Shown: piece after piece, positions 22,308-36,606 of the stretch | Numbering within the stretch: the first letter of the stretch is position 1 | Layout of the letters: each line of letters begins with the position of its first letter | DNA from: Eubacteriales bacterium | Lineage (GTDB): Bacteria > Bacillota > Clostridia > Oscillospirales > CAG-272 | Assembly (NCBI GenBank): GCA_045649045.1 | Contig: JAZRPF010000051.1 | Span: 14,471 to 78,470, forward strand | Reading direction: 5' to 3' | Length of the DNA stretch: 64,000 nucleotides | Notes under the pieces: model-generated | The model's input: only the letters and a program-made list of their open reading frames with translations | The model's database searches: none | Told to the model about the DNA's origin: nothing | Translations under genes and position numbers: made by a program

Positions 22308-23978
22308 TTATGCCTGCGGTGCAACCCAAACCGAAACCGAAACACCGCGGTTTGTCATGGAAACAACCGCACCTTGGGTGTTGATAACACCATCAGGTGT
22401 CACATTCTGCGCCAAATTGTCAAGCGCGCCGTTATCACGCAACCACCAATACATACCGTCTTCAGATGCTACAACCTTTTTGTTACCATCTGCGTCAACA
22501 ACTTCTATAGGATTCGAGGTAGCTGTTCCCTTGCGAACACAAAGAATCTCCTCTTCAAAAAGTCTTGCAAGCTCGGATGCGCTGAAGATGAAGAGCTTAT
22601 CACCTGCAACACCGATATCATTGCGAATGTCAACCTGCGCTTGCAGTTCTTCCTCTGTAAAGGCAGTCACAAAATCGTTTATCAGCCACTCACGAAGAGA
22701 GGATGCGTTCCAATCAACTGCAACAGGTGCATTGTTATACGGAAGCTTTTCAACAGCATAGAACATGGTCAACAGATAAGCATCGCCCTCCTGTGCAACA
22801 ACTGTCCAGGTAAGCGGCTCCTTGGTTGTTGCTTCACCGTCCTGATCATAACGGCCATAGAGGAAATTGATTGAAGCGTTCTGGTCATTGTTCCATACAG
22901 CATCCATCATTGTCAAAATATTGACACCGCCACTGAACAAAACACTTTGCTCATCTGTCCAGTTCTTGAATGCATAAGCGCCAACAGATTCCAAGCCCTC
23001 GGGTAAGGTCATTTCCTTAATGGAAGTGCCGTTTGCAAAGACATATGCACCAAGTGTGGTGACTGTATCGTCGAAACGAACCTCTTCAATTTCGGAAATA
23101 TAGGGTGCCCACGGAACAATCTTTTCCATGTAATCATACATAGCGCCCGTGCCATTGATATCAAGACGATGATCTTCATAGTAACACCAAGTCAGATCAT
23201 CACCACAACGACCGTCGGCAAGAATCTTTGTATATGTAATGATAGCCGTTGTATCATCAGTCATTGTACCTTCGAGGTTGACGCCGTCAACACGGTAACC
23301 TGCAACCGAAGGACACTCTACGGTATAATTGGTATCGCTGATATAGGTTGTAACCTCAGCCGGCTTCACTTCAAGACCATTTGCATAAAGATGCTGAACT
23401 GTCAAATCAAAATAGCGGCTGAATACAACAGTAATTTCTCTGCTTGTAAAATAATCCTCGGCAATACCTGCATTTGCAAGCATCTGATTCCAAAGAGACT
23501 CACTACCGAAATAGCGAACGGTTTTAAGTGCTGTGCAGTTATCAAAAAGATTCTGTTCTGCGCTTTCCTCATTTTTTCCAAGGTTCTTGACAGTAGAAGG
23601 AATGCTGATTTCGGTTAAAGCCTGTGCTTTATCAGATGCAAACGCATTGATGTCAATACCGATAACAGTCTTATTATCCTGAATATCGGGGATGATAACA
23701 GTCGTACCCTCAAAGGTACCGAGACCGCTCACCGTGCAGGTCGTGCCTGTCTTGTTCACACCGTATTCAAGCCCTTCGGACGCGTTCAAGGTCGTCGGCT
23801 TTTTAATTTCTTCCTCGTCACCTGCCCCTTCACCACCGGTTTCATCACCGTCCTGTGAAGAGGATTCTGACGGATCGTCTGTCGTCGGCTTTTCGTCTTC
23901 ATCGCCACACGCAACAAAAGAGCCAAGCATCAACAGCACAAGTGCCATCGCCGTTATCTTCATCCAAATGTTTCGCAT
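22308..23978 (-). CDS. Lipoprotein with leucine-rich-repeat-like N-terminal region and DUF6273-like C-terminal domain
   Basis: The lipobox is LMLGSFVACGDE, followed by an acidic low-complexity linker. The C-terminal pattern DKLFIFSASELARLF...YWWLRDNG resembles DUF6273-type domains. The family call is made from memory only. Confidence 0.5.
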   Translation of the reverse strand: MRNIWMKITAMALVLLMLGSFVACGDEDEKPTTDDPSESSSQDGDETGGEGAGDEEEIKKPTTLNASEGLEYGVNKTGTTCTVSGLGTFEGTTVIIPDIQDNKTVIGIDINAFASDKAQALTEISIPSTVKNLGKNEESAEQNLFDNCTALKTVRYFGSESLWNQMLANAGIAEDYFTSREITVVFSRYFDLTVQHLYANGLEVKPAEVTTYISDTNYTVECPSVAGYRVDGVNLEGTMTDDTTAIITYTKILADGRCGDDLTWCYYEDHRLDINGTGAMYDYMEKIVPWAPYISEIEEVRFDDTVTTLGAYVFANGTSIKEMTLPEGLESVGAYAFKNWTDEQSVLFSGGVNILTMMDAVWNNDQNASINFLYGRYDQDGEATTKEPLTWTVVAQEGDAYLLTMFYAVEKLPYNNAPVAVDWNASSLREWLINDFVTAFTEEELQAQVDIRNDIGVAGDKLFIFSASELARLFEEEILCVRKGTATSNPIEVVDADGNKKVVASEDGMYWWLRDNGALDNLAQNVTPDGVINTQGAVVSMTNRGVSVSVWVAPQA

Positions 23979-24169
23979 CACAATACCGACCTCTTATTTA
24001 GAGGCTTTCCTTTCTTGTTCTGACAGAAGCGCTGCCGTTTATCATCAAAAGACTTTTCTGTCGTTTGTTTGCGCCGAGGTGGGTGCCTCAAACGCATCTG
24101 ACAGGCAATCATAAAACGCCTACAAGTATTATATCATGTCTTTCGTCATTTTGCAATACCTAATATGAA

Positions 24170-24205
24170 AAAAGACGATTTTTCTTGAAAGAAAAATCGT
24201 CTTTT
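24170..24205 (-). terminator. Intrinsic terminator of nagB
   Basis: AAAAGACGATTTTTC / GAAAAATCGTCTTTT stem, followed on the minus strand by TTTTTTC. Confidence 0.8.
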
Positions 24206-24229
24206 CATAAGCTTTGAGTGAGCTGCAAA

Positions 24230-25015
24230 TTACTTTTCGTTTTTATAAATTTCCTTGAAATACTTGTAGGTATCAACCTTCAGCTCGCCGCATGCCGCCT
24301 CATCACAAGCGATGATTCCATCGGGATGCATTTGCAAAGCGCTGATTGTCCATGCGTGGTCAACGCCGCCTTCAACGCAGTGGCGCAGTGCACGGGCTTT
24401 ATTATGTCCGCTGATTAACAGCAAAACCTGCTTGGAATCACAAACAGTACCAACACCAACAGAAAGCGCTGTCTTAGGTACTTTGTTTGGGTCATTGTCA
24501 AAGAAACGGGAGTTCACAATTAAAGTATCTTCTGTCAAGGCGCGAACACCTGTACGGGACGAAAGCGAGGTGAACGGCTCATTAAAAGCAATGTGTCCAT
24601 CAACGCCGCTACCACCCAAGAACAAGTCAATTCCGCCGTAGGAAGCAATCTTATCTTCATAGCGCTGGCATTCTGCTTCCAAATCGCTTGCCATACCGTT
24701 CAGAATATTGACATTTTCCGCCGGAATATCAATATGGTTAAAGAAATTGTCATGCATAAAATACCAGTAGCTCTGGTCATGCTCTCTTTGAAGACCAACA
24801 TACTCATCCATATTAAAAGTAACCACATTCTTGAAGGTTACCTTTCCTGCTTTGTTCATCTCAATCAGCTTTCTGTAAACTCCAAGCGGAGAAGATCCTG
24901 TAGGGAGACCGAGAACAAAGGGGCGGTCTTCCTTGTGGTTATTAATGGCATCGGCAATATGCTGAGCGGCCCATGCACTCATTTCTTCGTAATTTTGCTT
25001 AATGATCAGTTTCAT
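24230..25015 (-). CDS. nagB: Glucosamine-6-phosphate deaminase
   Basis: Contains [17 protein letters not shown]...[15 protein letters not shown]...FNMDEYVGL...[14 protein letters not shown]. Confidence 0.95.
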
Positions 25016-25141
25016 TTCATCACACTCCATATGTATTCATTCGAAGGAATTATATGTCAATACTCCTCTTTTTATATTATACACCTATTTACCTGTTTTG
25101 TAAAGCATTTTTGATGGAATATTTTATTTTAATGAAAAAAT

Positions 25142-25174
25142 GCGCCTCCAAAAGTCAGATGCTTTTGGAGGCGC
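25142..25174 (-). terminator. Intrinsic terminator, probably the native terminator of the PduL-like/NifU-like/GGGtGRT operon, now displaced by the inserted element
   Basis: GCGCCTCCAAAAG-(loop)-CTTTTGGAGGCGC, followed on the minus strand by ATTTTTTC. It lies about 40 nt downstream of the orphan gene end at 25214. Confidence 0.7.
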
Positions 25175-25213
25175 ATATCAACATCAATTTGTTTTTTGAT
25201 TTTTATATAAAAA

Positions 25214-25280
25214 TCACTTTGCAGTCTCTTCAATCGCAACGGCAACAGCAACCGTCATACCAACCATGGGGTTGTTACCT
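25214..25280 (-). pseudogene. Orphaned native 3' end of the GGGtGRT-family gene (last ~21 codons plus stop)
   Basis: The minus strand reads ...GNNPMVGMTVAVAVAIEETAK*. It matches the end of the intact gene at 34276.. (…GNNPMVGMTVAVAVAIEEASK*) over the 54-bp repeat and then diverges. Confidence 0.75.
25227..25280. repeat. att direct repeat, left copy
   Basis: TCTTCAATCGCAACGGCAACAGCAACCGTCATACCAACCATGGGGTTGTTACCT, identical to 34289-34342. Confidence 0.9.
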
Positions 25281-25295
25281 AAGTCATATATCCTT

Positions 25296-25447
25296 GTGGA
25301 TTGGTCTTAATTCGTCTTAATTTGAACGTATATGTTCAAGAACAACAGCTATATATCACGATGGCTTATCTGTATTTGTCTTAATTTGTTTCGATATGTT
25401 TTGATTAGGTTTTGAGAAAAGCGTGGATTTTTTGCGGATAAATCCAC
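25296..25447. repeat. Candidate integrase arm-type sites (GTGGATT(T)) and GTCTTAATT repeats near the left end
   Basis: GTGGATT at 25296-25302. GTGGATTT at 25423-25430 and its inverse AAATCCAC at 25440-25447. GTCTTAATT occurs three times between about 25304 and 25385. Confidence 0.6.
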
Positions 25448-25463
25448 CGATTTATACCGTGGC

Positions 25464-26771
25464 TTAATTACCCGCAAATATTGCATTTATGGCTTGCTTT
25501 CCCTCTGCTCTCATACTGTCGTCAAGGTGAATATATACGATTTTTGTTATTTTACAATCCTTATGTCCCAAACGCTCACTAATATACTTATCGGGCAACC
25601 GCGCGGAATACAGCATTGAAGCGTGAGTATGTCGCAAAGAGTGATATTTGAAGGCGGGGTATATATCCTTATGGATAACGCTTGATGTGTGCTGCATAGT
25701 GCGCAAAGAGATATAAGTCCCGTCTTTACGGACACACAAAAAGTTTATAGCATTTCCGTTTGCTGTTCGGTCTATGGGATTAGGTACGGCATTATCGGGA
25801 TTATTTACACCGCTAAAGGCAAGCGGATACGTGGCGTAATAGCTATTATAATATTCTCCATAATAGATTTTCATAGCTTCTTGCCGCCGTTTTTCCTCGC
25901 GGAGCAACCGCACCATACTGTCACTTAAATCTATCACTCTAAAGGAATTATATTTAGGGTTAGTGAAATACCAAAAGCCCTCACCGCTCTCTGCACTACC
26001 GTTATTTATAATCTTGTCGCTTTCACTTCGCGTTCCATCCTCTTGCCATTGGATTTGACGGTTCACGGTCAATGTTTTAGCTTCCAAGTCTATATCTTCC
26101 CACGTTAGCGCGAATGCTTCTCCAATACGCAACCCGCACTCATAGCCGAGCCGTAAAGGTATGTGAGAGGGGTGTGTTTCGGGAAACCGCTCCATAATGC
26201 TTTTGATAGCTGACGGCGGTATAGTATCTCTTGTGTCGGTACGGGTAGGTGTGACGGGTGTTCTGTTTCTCGGTATCTTTAACCGCACCGCAGGGGAAAA
26301 GAGTATGTAATGATTATCTACGGCGTAGTTAAAGCTCTTTGAGAGAATGCCCGTAAGACTTGATAATGTATTGATAGAATATCCTTTATCGTACATATCA
26401 AGAATAAATTTCTGCAAATCATCCTTTGATATTGCTTTTAACCGATAGCTACCAAGCGCGGGTTTAATATGATTTCGCACCCGCTTTTGATAGTTCAAAA
26501 TTGTTGCGGGTTTCAAATCCACCTTACAATCATTTTCCATCCATATGTCAAGAAAATCGGCATAGGATAGATCAGCAGATTGCAAGACTTGTCCCGTGTG
26601 TTCATATAGCTGTTGCGCCTTAATTCCTGCGCGTTTTGCTTCCGCTTTAGACTTAAATCCGCGCTTTGTGTACTGTTTGCGCTTTCCGTTTTCGGATGCG
26701 ATTTCAAATCTATATTCATAAGATATAGAGCCGTCTTTGAGTTCGTGTTTTCTTATATTGATGTCACCCAT
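25464..26771 (-). CDS. int: Tyrosine site-specific integrase with N-terminal arm-binding-type domain
   Basis: The C-terminal catalytic pattern is ...HSLRHTHASML...LGHKDCKITKIVYIHL. The basic N-terminus is GSISYEYRFEIASENGKRKQYTKRGFKSKAEAKRAG, as in Tn916-type integrases. Confidence 0.9.
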   Translation of the reverse strand: MGDINIRKHELKDGSISYEYRFEIASENGKRKQYTKRGFKSKAEAKRAGIKAQQLYEHTGQVLQSADLSYADFLDIWMENDCKVDLKPATILNYQKRVRNHIKPALGSYRLKAISKDDLQKFILDMYDKGYSINTLSSLTGILSKSFNYAVDNHYILFSPAVRLKIPRNRTPVTPTRTDTRDTIPPSAIKSIMERFPETHPSHIPLRLGYECGLRIGEAFALTWEDIDLEAKTLTVNRQIQWQEDGTRSESDKIINNGSAESGEGFWYFTNPKYNSFRVIDLSDSMVRLLREEKRRQEAMKIYYGEYYNSYYATYPLAFSGVNNPDNAVPNPIDRTANGNAINFLCVRKDGTYISLRTMQHTSSVIHKDIYPAFKYHSLRHTHASMLYSARLPDKYISERLGHKDCKITKIVYIHLDDSMRAEGKQAINAIFAGN

Positions 26772-26835
26772 AGGTATATCCTCGCTTTCTGCTGATAATT
26801 ATATCATAGCATTTTCTTGTTGCATACTTCAATTT

Positions 26836-27060
26836 TTATGATAATTGCAACTGACATACATTGCTCATATCCTTAAAACTGAAACCCGTATAGCTGTCGA
26901 TAAATTTGTCTATAGAAGCGTTTGATACCTTTAGTCCGCCCAAATCCAAAGCGGATAGAAAACCGTTTGTGATAAGCTCATATACCTTTGCTTTGCTTAC
27001 TCCTAAAAGCTTGCTTGTTTCTGTTACGTTGTATAATTTCTTTGCGTTGATTTCTGTCAT
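26836..27060 (-). CDS. xis: Excisionase-family helix-turn-helix DNA-binding protein
   Basis: LYNVTETSKLLGVSKAKVYELITNGFL is the MerR/excisionase-type HTH. It lies directly upstream of int. Confidence 0.7.
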   Translation of the reverse strand: MTEINAKKLYNVTETSKLLGVSKAKVYELITNGFLSALDLGGLKVSNASIDKFIDSYTGFSFKDMSNVCQLQLS

Positions 27061-27667
27061 ATAATAAATTCATTTCTCCTTAGTTATGTATGCCACTCTT
27101 GATGTAATCAAGATATTGTCCGTAGGACTTGAATGTTGACATTCAACCCATCGGTGAGAAATGAAATGGCTTGTTTTTGGTTAAAATTTGTTAATCTCTA
27201 TCCCTCTCGGAAAACCCTCGAATTATAGGGATGTTTGTTTGTTTTTTTTCCTAAAAAGTGGCTTTTTTTCGTTCTCAGAAACGCTCTCAGTAAACTTGCC
27301 TCTAATAGGGTGTTTTTCGCACTTTTACCCCCTAAAAAACGCCGTTTTTAGTTGTTCTATTTTGTTTTTTCTATGGAGAGTGAAATGCGGTGGTATTTTC
27401 TCCATTTTCCACGCTTGTGTATCGTCGTGGTGGGATACGACGAACACGGCGCGAACCGCGCTCTTGGCTCGGTGTGCCACATAGATAGTAAAGAACTCGT
27501 CTGTGTAATAGACTTGAATACTGCCGTATAATTGAGCGGATTGTGTACATCATTCCGTTTCACAAAATGCAAGTTAAGCTGAGCTATGACCGCTACGGAA
27601 ACACCGAACAGTAGACAGGTATCTATTTCAGCCAAGCGATTATCTCAGTCATAAAGTGCAAGTAATC

Positions 27668-28597
27668 TTAATCTATGCAAAATACGCCCAAGACCTCTAC
27701 TTTTGAGTAGTCGCTACCGCTATAGAGGATATGTGGATTTATGATGATTTTTGCCCCTGCTTTGTGTATCCCATCATAAGCAATGGCACAAAACCGCTCC
27801 AAATGACCGTCAACATCAAACAAAATGCTGTTGTATATTTTCAAAAGCTTGTTAACGTGCGCTACATCGTAGCCGACCATTTCGCAAAAATCCGCTACAG
27901 ATATTAACTCAATCTTGTTTATATCCGTTTCCAAAGGGTTGCGACATATCAAGTTGTATTCGATGTTGATATACGGTAACAGCTTGAACAGATAACCTAA
28001 CTGACGGTCATTCTTTCTTGCTGAGGTAGTATATAATCTGCGGATACCCTCAATATAAAACTTTTGGTGTGCTTTTGTTCGTTGTGCCAAACGCCCACGC
28101 TTGAATATATCGTTGTTTGCAAATATCAATCCGTCCGCTTGCTCGGTTAAATAAATGGGACAAACCTCTTTCAAGAAACGTGATACCGTAGAAGCCGATA
28201 CCCCCAACAATGCGGGCAAGTCTGCGCTTTTGATAGGTGTTCTTTCGCTGAACATCAATTTGTTTTCGTAATTCATATACGTATTGAGATATACAAGGCG
28301 CGTTAAGCTTTCGGGGGAAATGTTTGACAACGGAGCTTGCTTTTTTACAAAGTAAAAGTATCCCAAAGGATCGTTGCACCCTCTCTGCAATCCGCGCAAC
28401 ATTTTTGCTTCTTCAAGTTGTCGTTCAAGCTCTTTTCTCCTTTTGTATTCCTCTTGCTGTTCGGGGGTGTATGTGATACTCCCGACGGGAACGATTGTAG
28501 CTACTGTATCTAATACCGCGCCCGTAGCTCGTTGAACCGCTAATATTTTTCCCGTATATTCTTCCATTACATAGTCATAACCTTTTGCTTCAGTCAT
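27668..28597 (-). CDS. Hypothetical protein, possible replication initiator or winged-helix protein of the element
   Basis: 309-aa ORF with an AAAGGAG RBS and an internal HTH-like segment (LPALLGVSASTVSRFLKEV). The functional call rests on position only. Confidence 0.4.
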   Translation of the reverse strand: MTEAKGYDYVMEEYTGKILAVQRATGAVLDTVATIVPVGSITYTPEQQEEYKRRKELERQLEEAKMLRGLQRGCNDPLGYFYFVKKQAPLSNISPESLTRLVYLNTYMNYENKLMFSERTPIKSADLPALLGVSASTVSRFLKEVCPIYLTEQADGLIFANNDIFKRGRLAQRTKAHQKFYIEGIRRLYTTSARKNDRQLGYLFKLLPYINIEYNLICRNPLETDINKIELISVADFCEMVGYDVAHVNKLLKIYNSILFDVDGHLERFCAIAYDGIHKAGAKIIINPHILYSGSDYSKVEVLGVFCID

Positions 28598-28686
28598 TAA
28601 AAACTCCTTTATAAAATTATGGTTTGATATGCCCTAAAAATATGCTCGTGAGTGGGGCATTTCAATCAAGAGCATTGACGGGGATA

Positions 28687-28884
28687 TTAGTTATCCTCGT
28701 CTTGCTCCGTGCGTTTTTCGGCGTGTGAGTGGCTATTTTCACCGCCTACGCCCGCACGATGCGGGTTCTTACCCATTCTAAAAGGGTACAACGCGCATTG
28801 AAAGCACGTGCACAAACGTACCTCTTTTGGTTGGTCGCAACAGCAATCAAGACAATGCTGTCTTATAGCTTGCATAGGTGTCAT
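28687..28884 (-). CDS. Small Cys-rich (zinc-ribbon-like) protein
   Basis: MTPMQAIRQHCLDCCCDQPKEVRLCTCFQCALYPFRMGKNPHR is a pattern common in phage and ICE accessory regions. Confidence 0.5.
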   Translation of the reverse strand: MTPMQAIRQHCLDCCCDQPKEVRLCTCFQCALYPFRMGKNPHRAGVGGENSHSHAEKRTEQDEDN

Positions 28885-29155
28885 ACCGTCGGTATCTCCT
28901 TTCCGTAATACTCACGGAATATTAAGTAGGTGACGGCAACTGCATAAACGACAAAAAGCGGGTATGCACCTTAAAAAGATATAGCTATCACTATACTTAA
29001 AAGGTATGCACACCCGCTATCAGCAAGGTTATGATATTCCTACTATGAGCAGGAATATGTAAAAACTCAATGCACACTATTCCATTATATCAATTATTAT
29101 ACCACACTTTAACATACTTGTCAATAGGTTTTTGAAAATTTCTCAAAAATATTTT

Positions 29156-29350
29156 TTATTCCTCGCTCTGACTTAACAGCAGATCAATGGCGCGGTTAAT
29201 AAAGGCGTTTACACTCTCCCCGTTCTCTGTGGCGCGTTGCTGTATAAGTTCCTTTTTGCCCTTCTTCACCATAAGGTTAATTCTGTCATACGCGCCCTTG
29301 TTATAATCGTTGTTGTAGCTGATAGTTTTTGCTTTATCCTTATATGCCAT
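29156..29350 (-). CDS. Ribbon-helix-helix (Arc/CopG-like) DNA-binding protein
   Basis: MAYKDKAKTISYNNDYNKGAYDRINLMVKKGKKELIQQRATENGESVNAFINRAIDLLL. The start at 29350 has an AAAGGAGA RBS. Confidence 0.6.
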   Translation of the reverse strand: MAYKDKAKTISYNNDYNKGAYDRINLMVKKGKKELIQQRATENGESVNAFINRAIDLLLSQSEE

Positions 29351-29489
29351 ATCGGTATCTCCTTTTATATCCGTGTGAGTGAAAAGGAACGACACACCTA
29401 AAAACACAGACGGCGTATTTTTCCACGGTGTAAAATATTCCGTCCTCTCGGTTGTGTGCTCTGTTTCTTTTTTATTATATCACAAGTCG

Positions 29490-29580
29490 GAACATTGTGC
29501 AATGTACAAAATGCACAAAAATTCGCAGAAGAACATTGTGCAATGTGCCGATTGACTTCCATTGCTCAATGTGCTATAAT
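29490..29580 (+). promoter_or_regulatory. Promoter (TTGACT 29552-29557, TATAAT 29575-29580) with three ACATTG-nn-CAATGT operator palindromes
   Basis: GAACATTGTGCAATGT occurs at 29490-29505 and again at 29531-29546. A degenerate copy, CCATTGCTCAATGTGC at 29559-29574, lies between the -35 and -10 elements. Confidence 0.6.
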
Positions 29581-29636
29581 GGTATCACAACGGGACGGAC
29601 ACCGCCCCGAATATAAAAGACAAAGGAGATAGAAAA

Positions 29637-29912
29637 ATGTCAGTAAACGAAATGGAAACAAAAATTGCAAGGTTGCAGGAATGGGAAGCAATCGCAGAGG
29701 AAGCAAGAGCAGAAGCGGAAGCGTTAAAGGATGAAATCAAAGCCGAAATGCTCTCCCGCGATACTGAGGAAATGGAAGCGGGGCGTTTCATCATCCGTTG
29801 GACTTCGGTACTTTCTAACCGCTTCGACACTACAAGCTTCAAAAAGGAACACGGCGACCTTTACAAGCTCTATACCAAGCAATCCGCAAGCCGTCGTTTC
29901 AGTATTGCATAA
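29637..29912 (+). CDS. Hypothetical coiled-coil protein of the element
   Basis: 91-aa ORF with an AAAGGAGA RBS. An N-terminal coiled coil (IARLQEWEAIAEEARAEAEALKDEIKAEM) is followed by FIIRWTSVLSNRFDTTSFKKEHGDLY. Confidence 0.5.
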   Translation: MSVNEMETKIARLQEWEAIAEEARAEAEALKDEIKAEMLSRDTEEMEAGRFIIRWTSVLSNRFDTTSFKKEHGDLYKLYTKQSASRRFSIA

Positions 29913-30054
29913 GAAAAAGCCCTTTACAAAAGCCACCGACCAAAGCGACAACGTAAAGAGCTTACCCACCCCCATCACGGAGCGGGTACATATATTATAA
30001 CGTATCCGCTCCTAAAAATCAACATCAAAATTATTGAATTTAGGAGAATTTACA

Positions 30055-30711
30055 ATGAAACAAATAACCAATATGTCCCGCCTTGTCAATCAGCTTGAAA
30101 AGTGCTTCCGTTTGCTCAATCAAGATTTTTTCAACGGCGAGCTTCCAACCCCGATTATTACAGTAATACCCACGCCCAAAGCATACGCCCACTACGTTCC
30201 ATATGATATATGGGATACAAAAGACGATAGCAAGCGCGAGATAAACATAGCAAGCGGAACACTCAACCGCCCGCTTGAAAATGTCATTGCTTCCTTACTG
30301 CACGAAATGGTGCATATGTACAACGATTGTATTCTCAATATCCAAGATACAAGCCGAAACGGTACATATCACAACCGCCAATTTGCCAAACAAGCAGAAG
30401 CACACGGGCTTATTGTTACCCGTTCTGAGAAATACGGATACGCGCACACCGCACCCGCCGACAGTTTGCTTGAATGGGTACTTAATCACGATGAGTTGCG
30501 CGAGATCGAAATTTGCCGTTCTAACCCCTTTTATAACGCCGTAGGAATAGGCACACACGCAAGCAACGGCGGGGCTATATCAACGACCACCGCAAACAAG
30601 AACAGCCACAGCCGACATTATATCTGTCCCTGCTGTCATACCATTGTGCGAGCTACAAAGGTAGTCAACATCATATGCGGGGATTGTATGGAGCGTATGG
30701 AAGAACGCTGA
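30055..30711 (+). CDS. SprT-like zinc metalloprotease domain protein with C-terminal zinc ribbon
   Basis: Carries the HExxH motif LLHEMVHMYN and a C-terminal CPCCHTIVRATKVVNIICGDC. RBS AGGAGA. Confidence 0.75.
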   Translation: MKQITNMSRLVNQLEKCFRLLNQDFFNGELPTPIITVIPTPKAYAHYVPYDIWDTKDDSKREINIASGTLNRPLENVIASLLHEMVHMYNDCILNIQDTSRNGTYHNRQFAKQAEAHGLIVTRSEKYGYAHTAPADSLLEWVLNHDELREIEICRSNPFYNAVGIGTHASNGGAISTTTANKNSHSRHYICPCCHTIVRATKVVNIICGDCMERMEER

Positions 30712-30718
30712 CACAGAC

Positions 30719-30746
30719 GGCGGGGAGAAATCCCCGCCACGTTTTT
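30719..30746 (+). terminator. Intrinsic terminator after the SprT-like gene
   Basis: GGCGGGGA-gaaa-TCCCCGCC followed by ACGTTTTT. Confidence 0.75.
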
Positions 30747-30915
30747 GAAGTTAACATTACAAAAAAATCAAGAGGGGGGATATCGCGCCCTCTCTGTACC
30801 AAAACAGCCCTATCAATATGCAGTATCAAAAGTGCTCGGTAAACTGCTCAAAATGCAGTTTGCCGACAGTACGAAAAGAACCGAAGGAAAGTTTTGCGAC
30901 AAAGGAGATTGAAAA

Positions 30916-31593
30916 ATGAAACAATACGGTTATGCACGTATCAGTACACATAAACAACGAATTGAAAGACAGCTACGCAACATCAAAGCGGAATATCCCT
31001 CAGCGGTCATTTTACAAGACGAATACACGGGAACAAAGCTCTCCCGCCCGTCGTGGGACAAGCTGATGAAGGTTATTAAAGACGGTGATATGATTATTTT
31101 TGATTCTGTATCCCGTATGTCAAGAAATGCTGAGGAAGGGTTTGCGGTATATGAAGCCTTATACAACCGAGGTATAGAGCTTATATTTCTTAAAGAGCCT
31201 CACATAAACACCCAAACATATAAAAAGGCAGTACAGAGCTCCGTGCCAATGACGGGAACGGCGGTCGATTACATCTTAGAGGGTATCAATAAATATCTGT
31301 TAGAGCTTGCTAAAGAGCAAATACGCCTTGCATTTGAGCAAGCGGAAAAAGAGGTTGAGGATTTGCACCAACGTACAAAAGAGGGGCTTATAACCGCCCG
31401 CTTGAATGGTAAACAGATAGGCATACCAAAAGGAACAAAGCTCACGACAAAAAAGAGCGTATCCGCAAAAGAAATCATACGCACTCACTCTAAGGATTTT
31501 GGCGGTACGCTGACAGACACGGAATGTATCAAGCTCGCGGGCATATCGCGTAATAGTTTCTATAAGTACAAGGCAGAGCTACGGGACGAATAA
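30916..31593 (+). CDS. Serine recombinase (resolvase/invertase family)
   Basis: MKQYGYARISTHKQRIERQ... contains the catalytic Ser context. It also has DSVSRMSRN and a C-terminal HTH (GISRNSFYKYK). Confidence 0.9.
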   Translation: MKQYGYARISTHKQRIERQLRNIKAEYPSAVILQDEYTGTKLSRPSWDKLMKVIKDGDMIIFDSVSRMSRNAEEGFAVYEALYNRGIELIFLKEPHINTQTYKKAVQSSVPMTGTAVDYILEGINKYLLELAKEQIRLAFEQAEKEVEDLHQRTKEGLITARLNGKQIGIPKGTKLTTKKSVSAKEIIRTHSKDFGGTLTDTECIKLAGISRNSFYKYKAELRDE

Positions 31594-31596
31594 GAA

Positions 31597-31620
31597 AAGG
31601 GGGATTTCGTCCCCCTTTAG
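31597..31620. terminator. Bidirectional terminator between the recombinase and the convergent GLUG gene
   Basis: AAGGGGGA-tttcg-TCCCCCTT with flanking A/T runs. Confidence 0.75.
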
Positions 31621-31626
31621 TATAGA

Positions 31627-33819
31627 TCACTTTAGTATTGGATATTCTCCGTCAGTCAAAGCCCAAACCGAATCATCCCAAGAAATAATATCTTTATGAA
31701 ATGAAATTGTTTTTATTATTTCCATAGATTTTGCTTGACCAAGTGAATTGGTCGGTTCGGTAGAGTGCTTATCTTTAATGTCAATACTAAAAGATTGATT
31801 TTCATAATAATAACAATTGGCGACAGTTCCGTTGTTGTTATTTCCTACTATTGCACCTGCATTTCCCAGCCAATTCTCCGTAGACAAAAAGATATTACAA
31901 ACAGCGTAACAATTCGCAACGACACTATAATTGCATCCAATCAATCCGCCTACATAAGCAATATCGGATTCAACGTATATATCTCCAATAGCATAACTGT
32001 TGTGTACTCCCCCCTTGCTGTAACCTACCAAGCCGCCACTATATCCACCGCAAGTGGAGTTGGAAACAACCGTACCTTTAGCATAGCAATTCCTAACGGT
32101 TCCATTTCCCGCAATTCCTTCGTGATAGCCTATTAAACCACCAACATAACTTCCATATGAATATTCATTTTGGCTTGTGCTTGTTGCGCTTATATAACCT
32201 GTTGCGTAACATTCGCTTATATCACCTACAGAATTATATGCAACTAATCCACCTGCATAACTATTACTAAATGAGGGAGAAAAACTATATGCTGTTACGT
32301 TACCCGTAGCATAGGAGTTTGATATTTTTCCATCATTATAACCTACAAGCCCTCCAGCATAGCTATAAGAATCAATCATATCATAATCTCCACCAAGAAC
32401 AGTTCCTATACTTGTAGCCGTTGTTGAGCCTGTTGCATAGCAATCTACAATGTGCCCATTATTTAGTTGAATTGTGGTTGTATTATTATACCCTATAAAT
32501 CCACCTACATAGCTGTAACTATCTTTGGTTTGATTGCTTGAATTGGTGGTAGAAGTTACATCGCCACTTGCGTAGCAATTCTCGTAATAGCCACCATTAT
32601 TATAGCCTACAAATCCACCTGCATAACAAAAGCCGTGTTCTTTCTTTGAACTAAATCCGACAACAGAGATTCTTCCCGAAGCAGAACTGTTTGAAAGTAC
32701 AAGATAATTACGAACATCTCCTATCAATCCACCCGCAATACATTCTTTACCCGATTCAGTTATACTTATATTTACAGAGGCAGAGCAGTTCGAGACTGTT
32801 TCTTCTTCGAATACACGCCCAACTAACCCGCCGACATAATTGCAATCATATCCCGAAATTTGGATCGAGCCTGAGGCATAACAATTTTGGAGTATTCCAT
32901 TTCGATGAATACCGAGTAGTCCACCTGCATATATAGTTGTTCCATCAGTTGCACTAACATTTATTGAAAAATTGTCCAGAATTAAATTTTGAATAGTGGA
33001 GCTGTTACTATATCCAAAGAACCCTATATATTTTGAAGGAGCGGTAATCTTAAAATTATACACTCTATGCCCATTACCATCAAACACCCCTGTAAAACAA
33101 TATGTGTTCGATGTTCCGATAGGTTTCCACTCCGCACCACCCAAATCAATATCCGAAGTCAAAACATAATTACCGTTCATTGAAATGTTTTTCAATTCTT
33201 GTGCTGTGGAAATGGTGGTATATGGATAATAGCAATGTGAACACCAATTATCTTTTATGCTATGTTCAGTTTTTTTTATTATTTCTTGCTTAATTATTAC
33301 CGTATTACACACAAAACAACGGCTTCCTTCGGTTAAGCCCGTTTGAGTACAAGAAGCTTCTACGGCAGAATCAATAACTACGGTATGTTCCTTTTTAATT
33401 ACTATTTCTTGTTCTACCAAAACAGCGTTGCAAACAGAGCAATGGCGACCTTCGGTCTTTCCCGATTCTTGACACGTTGCTTCTATCGCGCTATCTATTA
33501 CAATGGTATGTTCAAGTTTATTTATGGTATCGGTTTGTTTGGTATCGCATTTAGAGCAACTGCGCTCTTTTGTGCCTTCTTTTTCACACGTTGCGGTTGA
33601 TATTGTTACCCATTCACCAAAGCTATGTGTGCACACTGTTGGTGTATCATCCGTAGTTGGTGTATCATCAGTAGTCGGCGTATTGTCTGTTACGGGATTA
33701 TTCGTCTGTTGGTTAGTCGTATTGTTGTCTGTATCTATAGGGGGATTATCTGTATTATCACACGCAACTAACACAAATAACAATAGTATGATACAAAGAA
33801 TAGGCAGTATTTTTCTCAT
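31627..33819 (-). CDS. Surface lipoprotein with Cys3-His repeat modules and about ten GLUG-motif repeats
   Basis: The start MRKILPILCIILLLFVLVACDN (lipobox, GGAGGT RBS) is at 33819. It contains a TPTTDD low-complexity stretch, three C-x-C...H modules, and then repeated Y(A/V)GG(L/F)(V/I)G GLUG-type units. Confidence 0.75.
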   Translation of the reverse strand: MRKILPILCIILLLFVLVACDNTDNPPIDTDNNTTNQQTNNPVTDNTPTTDDTPTTDDTPTVCTHSFGEWVTISTATCEKEGTKERSCSKCDTKQTDTINKLEHTIVIDSAIEATCQESGKTEGRHCSVCNAVLVEQEIVIKKEHTVVIDSAVEASCTQTGLTEGSRCFVCNTVIIKQEIIKKTEHSIKDNWCSHCYYPYTTISTAQELKNISMNGNYVLTSDIDLGGAEWKPIGTSNTYCFTGVFDGNGHRVYNFKITAPSKYIGFFGYSNSSTIQNLILDNFSINVSATDGTTIYAGGLLGIHRNGILQNCYASGSIQISGYDCNYVGGLVGRVFEEETVSNCSASVNISITESGKECIAGGLIGDVRNYLVLSNSSASGRISVVGFSSKKEHGFCYAGGFVGYNNGGYYENCYASGDVTSTTNSSNQTKDSYSYVGGFIGYNNTTTIQLNNGHIVDCYATGSTTATSIGTVLGGDYDMIDSYSYAGGLVGYNDGKISNSYATGNVTAYSFSPSFSNSYAGGLVAYNSVGDISECYATGYISATSTSQNEYSYGSYVGGLIGYHEGIAGNGTVRNCYAKGTVVSNSTCGGYSGGLVGYSKGGVHNSYAIGDIYVESDIAYVGGLIGCNYSVVANCYAVCNIFLSTENWLGNAGAIVGNNNNGTVANCYYYENQSFSIDIKDKHSTEPTNSLGQAKSMEIIKTISFHKDIISWDDSVWALTDGEYPILK

Positions 33820-34091
33820 ATTTACCTCCAAATAAAAAGGGTGTGACCTCAATAGAAGTCGCACCCGAAAAACGCAAACTCCTATTGTTGCCACACAATT
33901 TATCAACAAATAAGGATTACTCTCCGTATTCATCAGCGGAATTTGCATTTTTACCAAATTCAAACTGACAAATAGGCAAAAAGGGTATACTTACAAAACC
34001 CTCTATAAAAATAGAGAGCTCACCTTGTGAAAGAATGTTGATTAAATTATGTGGCAGTTACAATTATATCATAAAAACAGCGTTTTGTCAA
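33820..34091 (-). promoter_or_regulatory. Consensus promoter plus ~235-nt structured leader with intrinsic terminator (copy 1 of a conserved leader RNA)
   Basis: All elements below are on the minus strand.
- Promoter: TTGACA (34091-34086), 17-nt spacer, TATAAT (34068-34063).
- P1: GCCACATAATTT (34055-34044) pairs with AAATTGTGTGGC (33901-33890).
- Hairpin: GAATTT-GGTAAAAATGC-AAATTC (33961-33939).
- Terminator: GGGTGCGAC...GTCACACCC plus TTTTTATTT (33866-33830), ending directly before the RBS. Confidence 0.65.
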
Positions 34092-34137
34092 TCCGTTACG
34101 GCAGATTTGAAGGGTGTGGGCGGGATTTGAAAAGAAA

Positions 34138-34193
34138 AAATCCACAGTTTAATCCGCTGTGGATTTTACGTGGATTTTCTGGCTCGTGGATTT
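34138..34193. repeat. Candidate integrase arm-type sites near the right end of the element
   Basis: AAATCCAC at 34138-34145. GTGGATTT at 34159-34166, 34170-34177 and 34186-34193. The same octamer occurs near the left end. Confidence 0.6.
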
Positions 34194-34275
34194 TTCTTTG
34201 TATGGAAAAAGGGCTCTCGATTTGCACCGAAAGCCCTAAAAAATATGATTTTTTGATCTAAAATGAGGTTTTTTC

Positions 34276-35283
34276 TTACTTCGAAGCTTCTTCAATCGCA
34301 ACGGCAACAGCAACCGTCATACCAACCATGGGGTTGTTACCTGCGCCGATGAGACCCATCATCTCAACATGAGCGGGAACAGAAGAGGAGCCTGCGAACT
34401 GTGCATCACCGTGCATACGGCCCATGGAGTCGGTCAAGCCGTAAGAAGCGGGGCCTGCTGCCATGTTATCGGGATGCAGGGTACGGCCCGTACCGCCGCC
34501 CGATGCAACCGAGAAGTACTTTTTACCTGTCTCATAGGACCACTTCTTATAAGTGCCTGCGACCAAATGCTGAAAACGAGTCGGGTTGGTGGAGTTACCT
34601 GTAATCGAAACATCAACACCCTCATGCTTCATGATGGCAACGCCTTCCAGAACATCGTTTGCACCGTAGCAACGAACCTTTGCCTTCTCACCGTCGGAAT
34701 AAGGAACGGTGCGGACAACAGTCAATTCATCTGTATAGAAATCATAGGAGGTTTCAACATAGGTAAAGCCGTTGATACGGGAAATGATGTACGCGGCGTC
34801 CTTGCCAAGACCGTTCAAAATGATTTGGAGAGGCTCTTTACGAACACGGTTTGCCTTCTTTGCAATACCGATCGCGCCCTCTGCTGCTGCAAAGGACTCA
34901 TGACCTGCAAGGAAGCAGAAGCACTTTGTCTCTTCGCGGAGGAGCATTGCTGCCAGATTACCGTGGCCGAGACCAACCTTACGGGTTTCAGCAACAGAGC
35001 CGGGGATGCAGAATGCCTGCAAGCCAATACCGATAGCTTCAGCAGCCTCTGCTGCGGTGGTGATACCCTTCTTAATGGCAATCGCACAACCGAGCGTATA
35101 TGCCCAGCTTGCGTTATCGAAAGCGATGGGCTGAACACCCTTTACGATTTCATCTACATTAATGCCTCTTTTTGCGCAAATATCGCGAGCGTCCTCAAGG
35201 TCAGCGATGCCGTACTCTGCCATGCAAGCCTTGATTTTTTCAATTCTTCTTTCGTATCCTTCAAATTTTACATTGTTCGACAT
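34276..35283 (-). CDS. GGGtGRT-family protein (function unknown)
   Basis: Contains the eponymous motif ...FSVASGGGTGRTLHPDNMAAGPASYG.... The start at 35283 has a GGGAGGA RBS. Its last codons are supplied by the inserted element. Confidence 0.8.
   Translation of the reverse strand: MSNNVKFEGYERRIEKIKACMAEYGIADLEDARDICAKRGINVDEIVKGVQPIAFDNASWAYTLGCAIAIKKGITTAAEAAEAIGIGLQAFCIPGSVAETRKVGLGHGNLAAMLLREETKCFCFLAGHESFAAAEGAIGIAKKANRVRKEPLQIILNGLGKDAAYIISRINGFTYVETSYDFYTDELTVVRTVPYSDGEKAKVRCYGANDVLEGVAIMKHEGVDVSITGNSTNPTRFQHLVAGTYKKWSYETGKKYFSVASGGGTGRTLHPDNMAAGPASYGLTDSMGRMHGDAQFAGSSSVPAHVEMMGLIGAGNNPMVGMTVAVAVAIEEASK
34289..34342. repeat. att direct repeat, right copy (inside the 3' end of the GGGtGRT gene)
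   Basis: Identical over 54 bp to 25227-25280. Confidence 0.9.
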
Positions 35284-35300
35284 GTTCACTATCCTCCCTA

Positions 35301-36011
35301 TCATTCTTCGCGGGGGTCGATGTACTTCACGGCACCGTCGGCTTCGGAATATCTACCGTAGGTCTTGATGTTTGCCTCATATGCTTCCTTGGGGTCTGTA
35401 CCCTTGCGGATGGCCTCCATCATCTTGCCGAGATGTACAAAGCGATAACCGATGACTTCACTATTCTTATCAAGTGCCAGATTCAGAATGTAACCTTCAG
35501 CCATCTCAAGATAACGAACACCCTTCTTCTTGGTTGCGAAAATGGTACCGACTTGCGAACGGAGTCCCTTACCGAGATCCTCAAGCGATGCGCCGACAGG
35601 AAGTCCGTTTTCGGAGAAAGCGGTCTGCGAACGGCCGTAAGCGAGCTGCTTGAAGATTTCACGCATTGCCACATTGATAGCATCGCAAACAAGGTCTGTA
35701 TTGAGAGCTTCGAGCAAGGTCTTGCCCTGAAGAATCTCGCCTGCCATAGCAGCGGAGTGTGTCATACCGGAGCATCCGCAGGTCTCAACAAGAGCCTCCT
35801 CGATGATACCTTGCTTCACATTCAAGGTCAGCTTGCACATACCCTGCTGGGGTGCGCACCAGCCAATACCGTGCGAAAGACCTGAAATGTCCTTGATCTC
35901 ATAAACCTTCACCCACTGGCCTTCTTCAGGAATGGGAGCGGGACCGTGATGAGGGCCCTTGGCAATAGGACACATACTTTCTACTTCGTGGGAATAGAGA
36001 ATTTCACTCAT
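35301..36011 (-). CDS. NifU/IscU-N-terminal-like Fe-S scaffold-like protein (function unknown in this context)
   Basis: Contains ...GIGWCAPQQGMCKLTLNVKQGIIEEALVETCGCSGMTHSAAMAGEILQGKTLLEAL.... RBS AAAGGAGA. The stop is 18 nt upstream of the ATG of the next gene, with the GGGAGGA RBS in between. Confidence 0.65.
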   Translation of the reverse strand: MSEILYSHEVESMCPIAKGPHHGPAPIPEEGQWVKVYEIKDISGLSHGIGWCAPQQGMCKLTLNVKQGIIEEALVETCGCSGMTHSAAMAGEILQGKTLLEALNTDLVCDAINVAMREIFKQLAYGRSQTAFSENGLPVGASLEDLGKGLRSQVGTIFATKKKGVRYLEMAEGYILNLALDKNSEVIGYRFVHLGKMMEAIRKGTDPKEAYEANIKTYGRYSEADGAVKYIDPREE

Positions 36012-36039
36012 TTTTTTGTCTCCTTTACAGTTTTCGCTG

Positions 36040-36606
36040 TCAGTCAGCGATAATTTCGCCCTCGGTTACACCGAAAGCGGCATTGGATTCATCTGTATCA
36101 ATATGCATTGCAGGGGCAAAATTTTTGTTGACACGCACAACCACATCATCAAAGATAAGCGGACGGTTACCGTTCAGCTTGACCTTGACAATCTGCTTAT
36201 CTGTTACGCCAAATTCAGCAGCAGCCTCGGGTGTCAGATGAATGTGTCTTTTTGCTGCAATCACGCCCTCGGCAAGTGTGACCTCACCGCAAGGACCGAC
36301 CAATTTACAGCCTGCGCTACCTACAACATCACCGCTCTCACGAATGGGTGCAGACACACCGATCGAGCGCGCATCGGTCAAGGACAGTTCAACCTGTGAT
36401 GCAGGGCGGGCAGGGCCAAGGATGCTGACGCCTGCAAGCTCTTTCTTTGAGCCGACAACCGTGACGCGCTCTTCGCACGCAAACTGTCCGGGCTGGCTCA
36501 AATCCTTTTTCTTTGTTAACACATATCCCTCTCCAAAGAGAATATTGATGTGTTCTTCCGTCAAATGAACATGACGGGCAGAAGTTTCCACCATGACTTT
36601 TTTCAT
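36040..36606 (-). CDS. PduL-type phosphotransacylase without encapsulation peptide
   Basis: Reads MKKVMVETSARHVHLTEEHINILFGEGY... and IAAKRHIHLTPEAAAEFG (duplicated PduL motif). It starts directly with the catalytic domain, unlike 4177..4830. Confidence 0.85.
   Translation of the reverse strand: MKKVMVETSARHVHLTEEHINILFGEGYVLTKKKDLSQPGQFACEERVTVVGSKKELAGVSILGPARPASQVELSLTDARSIGVSAPIRESGDVVGSAGCKLVGPCGEVTLAEGVIAAKRHIHLTPEAAAEFGVTDKQIVKVKLNGNRPLIFDDVVVRVNKNFAPAMHIDTDESNAAFGVTEGEIIAD

Follow-up and report, generated by a model that had tools for sequence, protein, structure and literature searches.

The 64,000-nt stretch analysed in this work (the window) comes from contig JAZRPF010000051.1 of a Eubacteriales bacterium (assembly GCA_045649045.1; 1,598,443 bp in 61 contigs). 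With a probability of about 0.9, positions 25227–34342 of the window are a site-specific integrative element of the lambda-Int type, inserted in the last 22 codons of a gene encoding a GGGtGRT-family protein. The features that match this type are the catalytic set of the integrase, an arm-binding domain together with arm sites on both sides, direct repeats at the borders, and an empty site. Integration at a gene end with an element-supplied replacement end is an ordinary, textbook mechanism, whereas the target is undescribed yet widely used. The features of the element and of its target gene are listed in Table 1.

The two 54-bp direct repeats match perfectly and their identity breaks off exactly at either border. 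When the comparison was relaxed to 94% identity, the similarity spanned 65 bp and took in both alternative gene endings. The 9,008 bp between the cores have a GC content of 40.5%, compared with 44–50% in the flanks and 48.4% in the genome, so that the perfect repeats around an AT-richer segment, as read in the original prediction, were borne out. The same prediction had named the occurrence of the repeat at many other loci as a ground for doubt. The 54-bp pattern has only two sites in the whole 1,598,443-bp assembly, namely the two element borders, and no further genomic locus carries it. A chance origin of the repeat is ruled out, as it is perfect over 54 bp and lies at a site common to dozens of related elements. 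In scans with Rfam and for tRNA genes, neither the segment nor its immediate surroundings contained a tRNA or tmRNA gene or matched an Rfam family, and thus the target is not a tRNA or tmRNA gene.

Table 1. Features of the integrative element and its target gene, in window coordinates
Feature	Position	Strand	Basis
Native operon terminator, orphaned by the insertion	25140–25176	-	15-pair hairpin and T-run
Orphaned native ending E-T-A-K-stop (...AIEETAK-stop)	25214–25226	-	Translation
Integrase-proximal att core copy, 54 bp	25227–25280	-	Encodes the GNNPMVGMTVAVAVAIE stretch; perfect repeat
Integrase-side att arm	25296–25447	.	Three GTCTTAATT-type repeats and two inverted GTGGATTT sites
Tyrosine integrase, 435 aa	25464–26771	-	PF00589 E 8.7e-19, PF14659 Phage_int_SAM_3, PF14657 Arm-DNA-bind_4; phrog_1
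Xis/recombination directionality factor candidate, 74 aa	26836–27060	-	HTH_17 E 1.7e-8
Non-coding stretch, 600 bp, between rep-like and xis	27061–27667	.	No credible open reading frame (ORF)
Probable replication initiator, 309 aa, tandem winged-helix fold	27668–28597	-	AlphaFold2 model, pLDDT 83.5
Cys-rich protein, 65 aa	28687–28884	-	ORF only; CLDCCCDQ...CTCFQC; no family match
Ribbon-helix-helix (RHH; Arc/CopG-like) regulator	29156–29407	-	phrog_13890 E 5e-18; Arc-like phrog_582; sub-threshold RHH Pfam matches
Three palindromic operator-like 15/16-mers CATTGTGCAATGT	29490–29574	.	Repeat families D1, D3, at divergent promoter
Conserved 91-aa backbone protein	29637–29912	+	phrog_6244, phrog_434 C-terminal region
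SprT-like putative metalloprotease, C-terminal Cys4 ribbon	30034–30711	+	HEMVH; phrog_6361 E 3e-25
Small serine recombinase, resolvase/invertase type, catalytic Ser10	30916–31593	+	PF00239 E 3.5e-21; phrog_125 DNA invertase
GLUG-repeat surface lipoprotein, cargo	31627–33822	-	PF07581 x7; lipobox LVAC
Consensus promoter (34091–34063) and long leader before cargo gene	33830–34091	-	Promoter match 12/12
Four GTGGATTT arm-type sites, gene-proximal arm	34138–34193	.	Starts 34138, 34159, 34170, 34186
Element-borne terminator, now ending the host operon	34210–34237	-	12-pair hairpin and T-run
Element-supplied replacement ending E-A-S-K-stop (...AIEEASK-stop)	34276–34288	-	Translation
Target gene, GGGtGRT-family protein, full-length	34276–35304	-	PF14057 E 2e-194
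Gene-proximal att core copy, 54 bp	34289–34342	-	Perfect repeat

Empty site, gene endings and att architecture

The empty site had been predicted as position 25226 joined to one core copy and then to 34343, and it was found in four independent ENA metagenome contigs (L061–L064), which were obtained by exact-sequence look-up of the neighbouring NifU-like protein. Their gene order (ClpP, PduL-type phosphotransacylase, NifU-like, GGGtGRT, nagB, a leucine-rich repeat (LRR) lipoprotein, dapA) is that of the window flanks without the insert. The predicted join (23000–25280 plus 34343–36600) aligned with these contigs as a single colinear high-scoring segment pair of 4,540 columns with 95.9% identity and three gaps. 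In these contigs, a single core copy leads from the gene to an ESAK-stop, a native-type ending homologous to ETAK, which is followed by the native intergenic sequence and the native terminator; the terminator lies directly 3' of the gene.

The element and the host locus also occur independently of each other, since flanks were found without the element and the backbone was found without the flanks. In the gut-metagenome runs X1–X2, both flanks are present at ~100% identity with zero depth at 25290–25400 and 34180–34287, and in runs X1–X4 the depth across the element interior is near zero. Owing to the cross-species conservation of the core, all Logan contigs of runs X1–X4 end within it; the presence or absence of each side is readable, with no single contig across the core. 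In the bovine and goat gut runs X10, X14, X16 and X20, on the other hand, the backbone (~26000–31600) is present at 95–99% identity without the host flanks and without the GLUG gene. Furthermore, in strain L066, which is 99.2% identical over 34343–36600, homology stops precisely where the core ends on its 3' side. In this ENA contig (3223–5060), the gene ends with EEASK-stop and is followed by unrelated DNA including an EamA transporter gene, with no match anywhere in the window's genome. Thus, L066 carries a different insert at the same border, which means that the site is reused even within the species.

The GGGtGRT gene is the last gene of a PduL-type/NifU-like/GGGtGRT operon, the partners of which match PF06130 and NifU_N. 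Translation bore out both endings that had been proposed, the EASK-stop of the full-length gene and the ETAK-stop of the orphan gene piece (25214–25280 overall). The native ETAK-stop and the native terminator are now 9 kb from the gene, and a flank contig of run X1 ties the native ending to nagB. Both expected terminator hairpins were found as well, at 34237–34210(-) and 25176–25140(-). The claim that the new ending and the new terminator are supplied by the element is supported by the related elements L053 and L054, which also supply an EEASK ending adjoining the arm sites. As closely related elements bear the same ending by the same arm sites, the ending and the terminator are element-derived.

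The integrase is intact, although its degeneration on closer alignment had been named as a possible refutation. All five catalytic residues (R215, H377, R380, H403 and Y413) are present and are invariant across 14 family members. The Xis candidate scored 26.0 bits against the excisionase family TIGR01764, just below the cut-off of 28.8, and in related elements xis is always directly upstream of int. The octamer GTGGATTT occurs 11 times in the window, compared with 2.6 expected copies, and none of 100 shuffles reached 11. Six of the 11 copies lie in the element ends, at 25423, 25440, 34138, 34159, 34170 and 34186. The integrase-side sites (25423–25430, +; 25440–25447, -) have offsets of 164 and 181 in the 330-bp arm, and these are the same in L053 and L054. 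On the gene-proximal side, the distances from the core are 96, 112, 123 and 144 bp in both the window and L053, with the same orientations. In L054 they are one base longer (97, 113, 124 and 145), with the same number and orientation of sites. This geometry is kept despite the arms being only ~80% identical in sequence. Moreover, the elements with 58–61% identical integrases (L055 and L060) have TTGCACAA-type repeats in place of GTGGATTT. Conserved offsets, together with a motif that switches along with the integrase, mark the GTGGATTT octamers, on sequence grounds, as functional arm-type integrase sites. The proposed clustering of octamers inside both ends therefore stands for the six exact copies with their conserved geometry, but the site given at 25296 is GTGGATTG, a 7/8 match and not an exact copy. 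Between the core and the integrase-side arm sites, three GTCTTAATT repeats (25305–25400) are candidate Xis or accessory sites; in L053 they are replaced by AATCAAGAC.

Across the elements, the repeats share their start to within a few bases (A/GGGTAAC/TAAC...) but reach varying distances toward the stop codon. A shared start and a variable end are expected if attP bears the 3' end of the gene and the crossover takes place near the 5' edge of the identity block. Intersection of the exact repeats of L053 (27 bp), L054, the L027 element and the G013 array would confine the crossover to CCCCATGGTTGGTATGAC, and a 13-bp repeat ACAACCCAATGGT beside the L059 element would narrow it to about CCC(C/A)ATGGT. 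The anatomy suggests the following integration route. A heterobivalent tyrosine integrase would bind the GTGGATTT arm sites flanking an attP of ~400 bp, which would bear a copy of the 3' end of the gene. The attP would recombine with the chromosomal gene end, with the crossover near CCCCATGGT on the 5' side of the 54-bp identity block, and Xis-dependent excision would give a circle.

Relatives of the integrase and the shared target

The integrase has homologues in 584 clusters at E ≤ 1e-30. All seven relatives that were looked up in public contigs (50–92% identity) are located at the 3' end of a GGGtGRT gene. Four of them, L053, L054, L055 and L060 (integrase identity of 92, 81, 61 and 58%; direct repeats of 27, 35, 45 and 55 bp, respectively), have a window-like layout and span 7.4–8.6 kb between the cores. 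Their order is gene, cargo, serine recombinase, SprT-like, 91-aa ORF, regulators, rep-like, xis, int and orphan gene end. The other three are of different kinds. L058 (50%) is an element with a relaxase (PF03432), NikA and a D5-primase; L059 (51%) carries genes of a type IV secretion system (T4SS), namely the type IV coupling protein (T4CP), VirB4 and pilin genes; and the integrase of L057 (51%) adjoins an orphan fragment of the gene end. In L057 (a contig of GCA_014799575.1; 3593–7620 and 14386–15789), a Gabija-like pair of an OLD-TOPRIM/AAA_15 protein and a UvrD-type helicase, together with a Fic protein, lies near the integrase, and past the orphan gene end there is a reverse transcriptase with a bAvd accessory gene, resembling a diversity-generating retroelement.

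More distant integrases (42–44% identical) were found at the same target site in 5-kb elements whose genes are int, one for a lipoprotein and one that is rep-like (G031, with 59-bp repeats, and G010). These ~5-kb elements, L050 (G031:C189, 9297–14347) and L027 (G010:C8, 5017–9733), encode a Cys-repeat lipoprotein and come from genomes of different families. The N-termini of their rep-like proteins are almost identical, which suggests recent transfer between families. Extra GGGtGRT 3' fragments were present in genomes of the genus and order, namely G019, G013 (three copies), G017 (three copies), G010, G014 and G031. In L025 (G013:C25, 651–3004) and L026 (G017:C80, 553–4901), three successive GGGtGRT 3' ends follow each other 0.9–2.3 kb apart with no integrase homologue between the copies; these arrays look like tandem integrase-less mini-islands or remnants, all at the one att site. 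In a sample of the order, 217 of 301 genomes have the GGGtGRT gene, and 31 of the 217 give two or more matches. Occupied sites are at most this frequent, since the count includes some genes that are divided between contigs.

The target is shared by predicted viruses as well. A profile scan of IMG/VR with the integrase family gave 181 matches, while a single-protein scan with the window integrase gave no close relative. A contig was testable if its integrase was 39% identical or more and if its sequence continued for 200 bp or more downstream of int. The gene end was present downstream of int in 11 of these 13 contigs and was absent there from contigs with ~36% identical integrases. Two of these IMG/VR contigs bear phage-type replication and lysis genes. 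Together with the seven looked-up loci, this bears out the expectation that relatives of the integrase share its target gene. Among the integrases of the order at ≤ ~30% identity, most are not by the GGGtGRT gene, with one exception (G127, ~30%). A scan of genome contigs with the integrase gave only a 28% identical Paenibacillus match, which is uninformative. Within the clade, three attP geometries were seen: int outward to the orphan end, as in the window; int directly after the intact gene, as in the 5-kb elements; and int convergent with the gene, as in L058, L059 and several viral contigs.

Backbone and possible mode of spread

The backbone comprises int, xis, a probable winged-helix Rep, the RHH regulator with its palindromic operators, the 91-aa protein, the SprT-like protein and the serine recombinase, and it is common to related elements. 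The 91-aa ORF is in the same position in L054, L055 and L060, an ORF of 218–225 aa is in the SprT-like position in all related elements, and a serine recombinase is in the same position in L053, L054, L055 and L060, although in L053 it is not homologous at the DNA level. A promoter-like site (29552–29580) lies beside the operator-like repeats. ORFs of 60–82 aa are present in some related elements at a position comparable to that of the 65-aa Cys-rich ORF. Family matches confirmed the gene content given in the original prediction for the integrase with its arm-binding N-terminus, Xis, the serine recombinase and the GLUG lipoprotein. Its weaker calls stand in part: the SprT-like protein keeps HEMVH and the RHH protein matches Arc-like PHROGs, but both are sub-threshold in Pfam (SprT-like against PF10263, 22.3 bits, under the cut-off of 25.6), and the Rep-like call is based on weak fold matches and on the places where its homologues occur.

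The best Foldseek matches of the AlphaFold model of the 309-aa protein are 8ac8, 2nra (pi) and 8tip (RepE). They are weak (E 0.015–0.14, TM 0.31–0.44), and these structures are initiators of iteron plasmids. The match to Pfam RepL is sub-threshold (E 0.035), no family was above threshold, and a profile search against PDB sequences gave nothing significant. Homologues (~30% identity) are located on small plasmids typed as non-mobilizable and without another Rep. On the 6.7-kb plasmid pTP3, which also has no other Rep, the homologue is the largest ORF, and further homologues are on phiCD211-type records present in both phage and plasmid collections. By combining the structural model, the sub-threshold family match and the occurrence on plasmids, the 309-aa protein is probably a replication initiator. 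The adjacent non-coding stretch 27061–27667 is a candidate origin (ori or origin of transfer, oriT). It is conserved in part in L053, in which a 90.8% block ends at 27412. We hypothesize that the excised circle would replicate like a plasmid and that the serine recombinase would resolve multimers, a part of the reading to which we give slightly less than an even chance.

None of the element ORFs matched a relaxase or coupling protein family in Pfam, NCBIfam or PHROGs. Scans with Pfam and PHROGs identified neither T4SS genes (VirB4, T4CP) nor capsid, terminase, portal, small-terminase or packaging-interference genes in the element. The element thus falls outside the strict definitions of an integrative mobilizable element (IME; no relaxase), an integrative and conjugative element (ICE; no T4SS) and a prophage (no structural genes). 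In its behaviour, it resembles a small integrative plasmid or an island that hitch-hikes. As it has no relaxase, T4SS or capsid genes, the circle would pass between cells with outside help.

Several points weigh against an active integrative plasmid. A repeat search over 27000–27700 gave no convincing iterons, which counts against a replication function, and the matches from which the Rep assignment is drawn are weak (Foldseek E 0.015; Pfam E 0.035). The element has no recognisable transfer function. Exact-pattern scans of Joint Genome Institute metagenome contigs found neither the predicted attB nor attP, which likely reflects the limits of both the collection and exact matching and does not speak for their absence. 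The assembly is in 61 contigs.

The alternative that fares best is a hitch-hiking mobilizable island, in which a co-resident conjugative element would move the circle via an oriT in the 600-bp stretch and the Rep-like protein would be an origin-binding accessory. It contests only the plasmid-like part of the reading and not the integration model. Integrases of the same clade occur at the same site in the T4SS-bearing L059 and the relaxase-bearing L058, so helpers would frequent the niche, and the 600-bp non-coding region adjoins xis. Relaxase-less islands with only an oriT have also been reported to be common (bioRxiv 10.64898/2026.01.13.699239). However, no oriT was recognised, the element is without a relaxase, a coupling protein or any T4SS gene, and the occurrence of Rep-like homologues on small plasmids typed as non-mobilizable and on phiCD211-type records points to replication. 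We therefore regard such an island as unlikely, but as one to be taken seriously.

Decidedly less probable is a phage satellite or a remnant of a small prophage, which would need a helper phage for packaging and spread. The size of the element and its int, regulator and rep layout are reminiscent of phage-inducible islands. Six of the eight backbone proteins match unannotated or generic PHROGs (phrog_1877, 9501, 13890, 6244, 6361 and, for the integrase, phrog_1), the exceptions being the 65-aa ORF and the serine recombinase, and predicted viral contigs, some as long as 176 kb, have integrases of 39–44% identity at this att site. On the other hand, capsid, terminase, portal, small-terminase and packaging-interference genes were not found, although packaging functions could be unrecognisable, and the single-protein scan of IMG/VR was without a close integrase relative. 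The compact 7.4–9.1-kb layout recurs in at least five independent genomes, which speaks against random decay of a prophage, and a decayed prophage was rejected for this reason.

An assembly chimera formed via the core, or a fixed island that no longer excises, is very improbable: the core is so conserved across species that the Logan contigs of every run break inside it, the assembly is fragmented and excision was not seen, but within a single contig each junction has a host-specific and an element-specific side, the core copies do not differ from each other and up to 25271 (X1 flank contig) also match element-free X1 strains, cores of other species differ at 4–12 of 54 positions, close relatives are integrated likewise in independent assemblies, and int, xis and the arm sites are intact and conserved.

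Exchangeable cargo and comparison with known systems

Exchangeable cargo occupies a slot that extends from the serine recombinase to the gene-proximal att site. The GLUG ORF as called is 31627–33963(-), but Met48 precedes the lipobox LVAC, which places the true start at ~33822. The promoter and leader in front of it (33830–34091, -) are 77–81% identical to stretches before other cargo genes in L050 and L053, and an Rfam scan over the leader region gave no match. By comparing the window with L053, DNA homology is missing only in the cargo slot and in the serine recombinase gene, and the remainder is 81–91% identical. The cargo of the relatives is a Big_2 protein, a 498-aa protein or an HTH (helix-turn-helix) protein with a 408-aa protein, or there is none: the GLUG gene is replaced by other cargo in L053–L055, and L060 is cargo-free. 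Likewise, it is missing from the otherwise 95–99% identical backbones in runs X10–X20. The serine recombinase and GLUG genes are convergent, and a G+C-rich hairpin between them (31596–31618) reads as a terminator on either strand and marks exactly the border of the exchangeable slot. In the host chromosome, two genes past the att site, a gene at 22308–23981(-) encodes a 557-aa lipoprotein with BspA-type LRR, MucBP and DUF6273 domains, which has a short similar stretch in common with the cargo protein of the L027 element.

Taken together, these relatives may represent an undescribed family of 7–9-kb integrative plasmid-like elements of gut Clostridia, with a fixed backbone, no relaxase or capsid and a slot for surface cargo. 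Down to ~39% identity, its integrase clade would have kept a single core specificity, for the GGGtGRT 3' end, and phages, ICEs, IMEs and mini-elements would have taken up this clade in the three attP geometries. This proposal is tentative, and we hold it to be possible at odds clearly below even. The slot may swap surface cargo (GLUG, Big_2 and other lipoproteins), and a promoter and leader may be shared at least in the window, L053 and L050.

Several known systems resemble the element in part. Two examples from Proteobacteria, phage 21 (a prophage) and e14 (a defective prophage), occupy the 3' end of the Escherichia coli gene icd and bring a substitute 3' end, so that the gene product is altered in its last residues only. 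The element described here also supplies a substitute 3' end for a protein-coding gene, but it has no phage structural genes and has a plasmid-like backbone. The pSAM2-type integrative plasmids of actinomycetes have an int-xis-rep module, integrate into tRNA genes and encode an FtsK-like transfer protein. They have in common with the present element the int-xis-rep core, a size of ~10 kb, site-specific integration and replication expected after excision. In contrast, no transfer gene is seen in the present element and its Rep is unrelated in sequence.

A protein-gene terminus had been called an uncommon target, and this was overstated, because it is routine for streptococcal ICE integrases (PMC4701971). 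Tyrosine integrases of streptococcal ICEs enter housekeeping protein genes at either the 3' or the 5' end, and the direct repeats measure 12–54 bp (PMC4701971). For ICEs and IMEs of streptococci, insertion in a 3' end with repeats that contain the exact end of the gene is well documented (PMC4701971), and the 3'-end targets include rplL, guaA, rpsI and rpmG (PMC4701971; review PMC5704250). The resemblance lies in the site-specific tyrosine integrase, in a target gene that is kept intact, and in related integrases that serve one target in various element types. However, GGGtGRT is absent from their listed targets, the present hosts are uncultured gut Clostridia, and the present element is without a relaxase, a coupling protein and a T4SS. 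The searchable literature on the GGGtGRT family has no mention of it as an att site. The iOriTs, which are att-delimited genomic islands with an oriT and no relaxase (bioRxiv 10.64898/2026.01.13.699239), are similar in being delimited by att sites and in having an integrase, adaptive cargo and no relaxase or mating-pore genes. They differ in that no oriT was identified in the present element, in which the probable Rep and the resolvase suggest an autonomous episomal phase.

If the proposal of a family with a widely recruited integrase clade is true, the end of the GGGtGRT gene would be one of the major integration hotspots of the gut microbiome, so far unrecognised. The 3' end of the gene can be used as a landmark to find and delimit prophages, ICEs, IMEs and small islands in genomes and metagenome-assembled genomes of gut Clostridia, and the shared target explains why assemblies often break there. 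Moreover, the integrases form a natural series from 92% to ~39% identity in which the core target is kept while arm sites, attP orientation and element type change, and this series is good material for studying the evolution of tyrosine-integrase specificity. For the hosts, a compact backbone with a swappable surface-lipoprotein slot may let gut Clostridia vary their surface.

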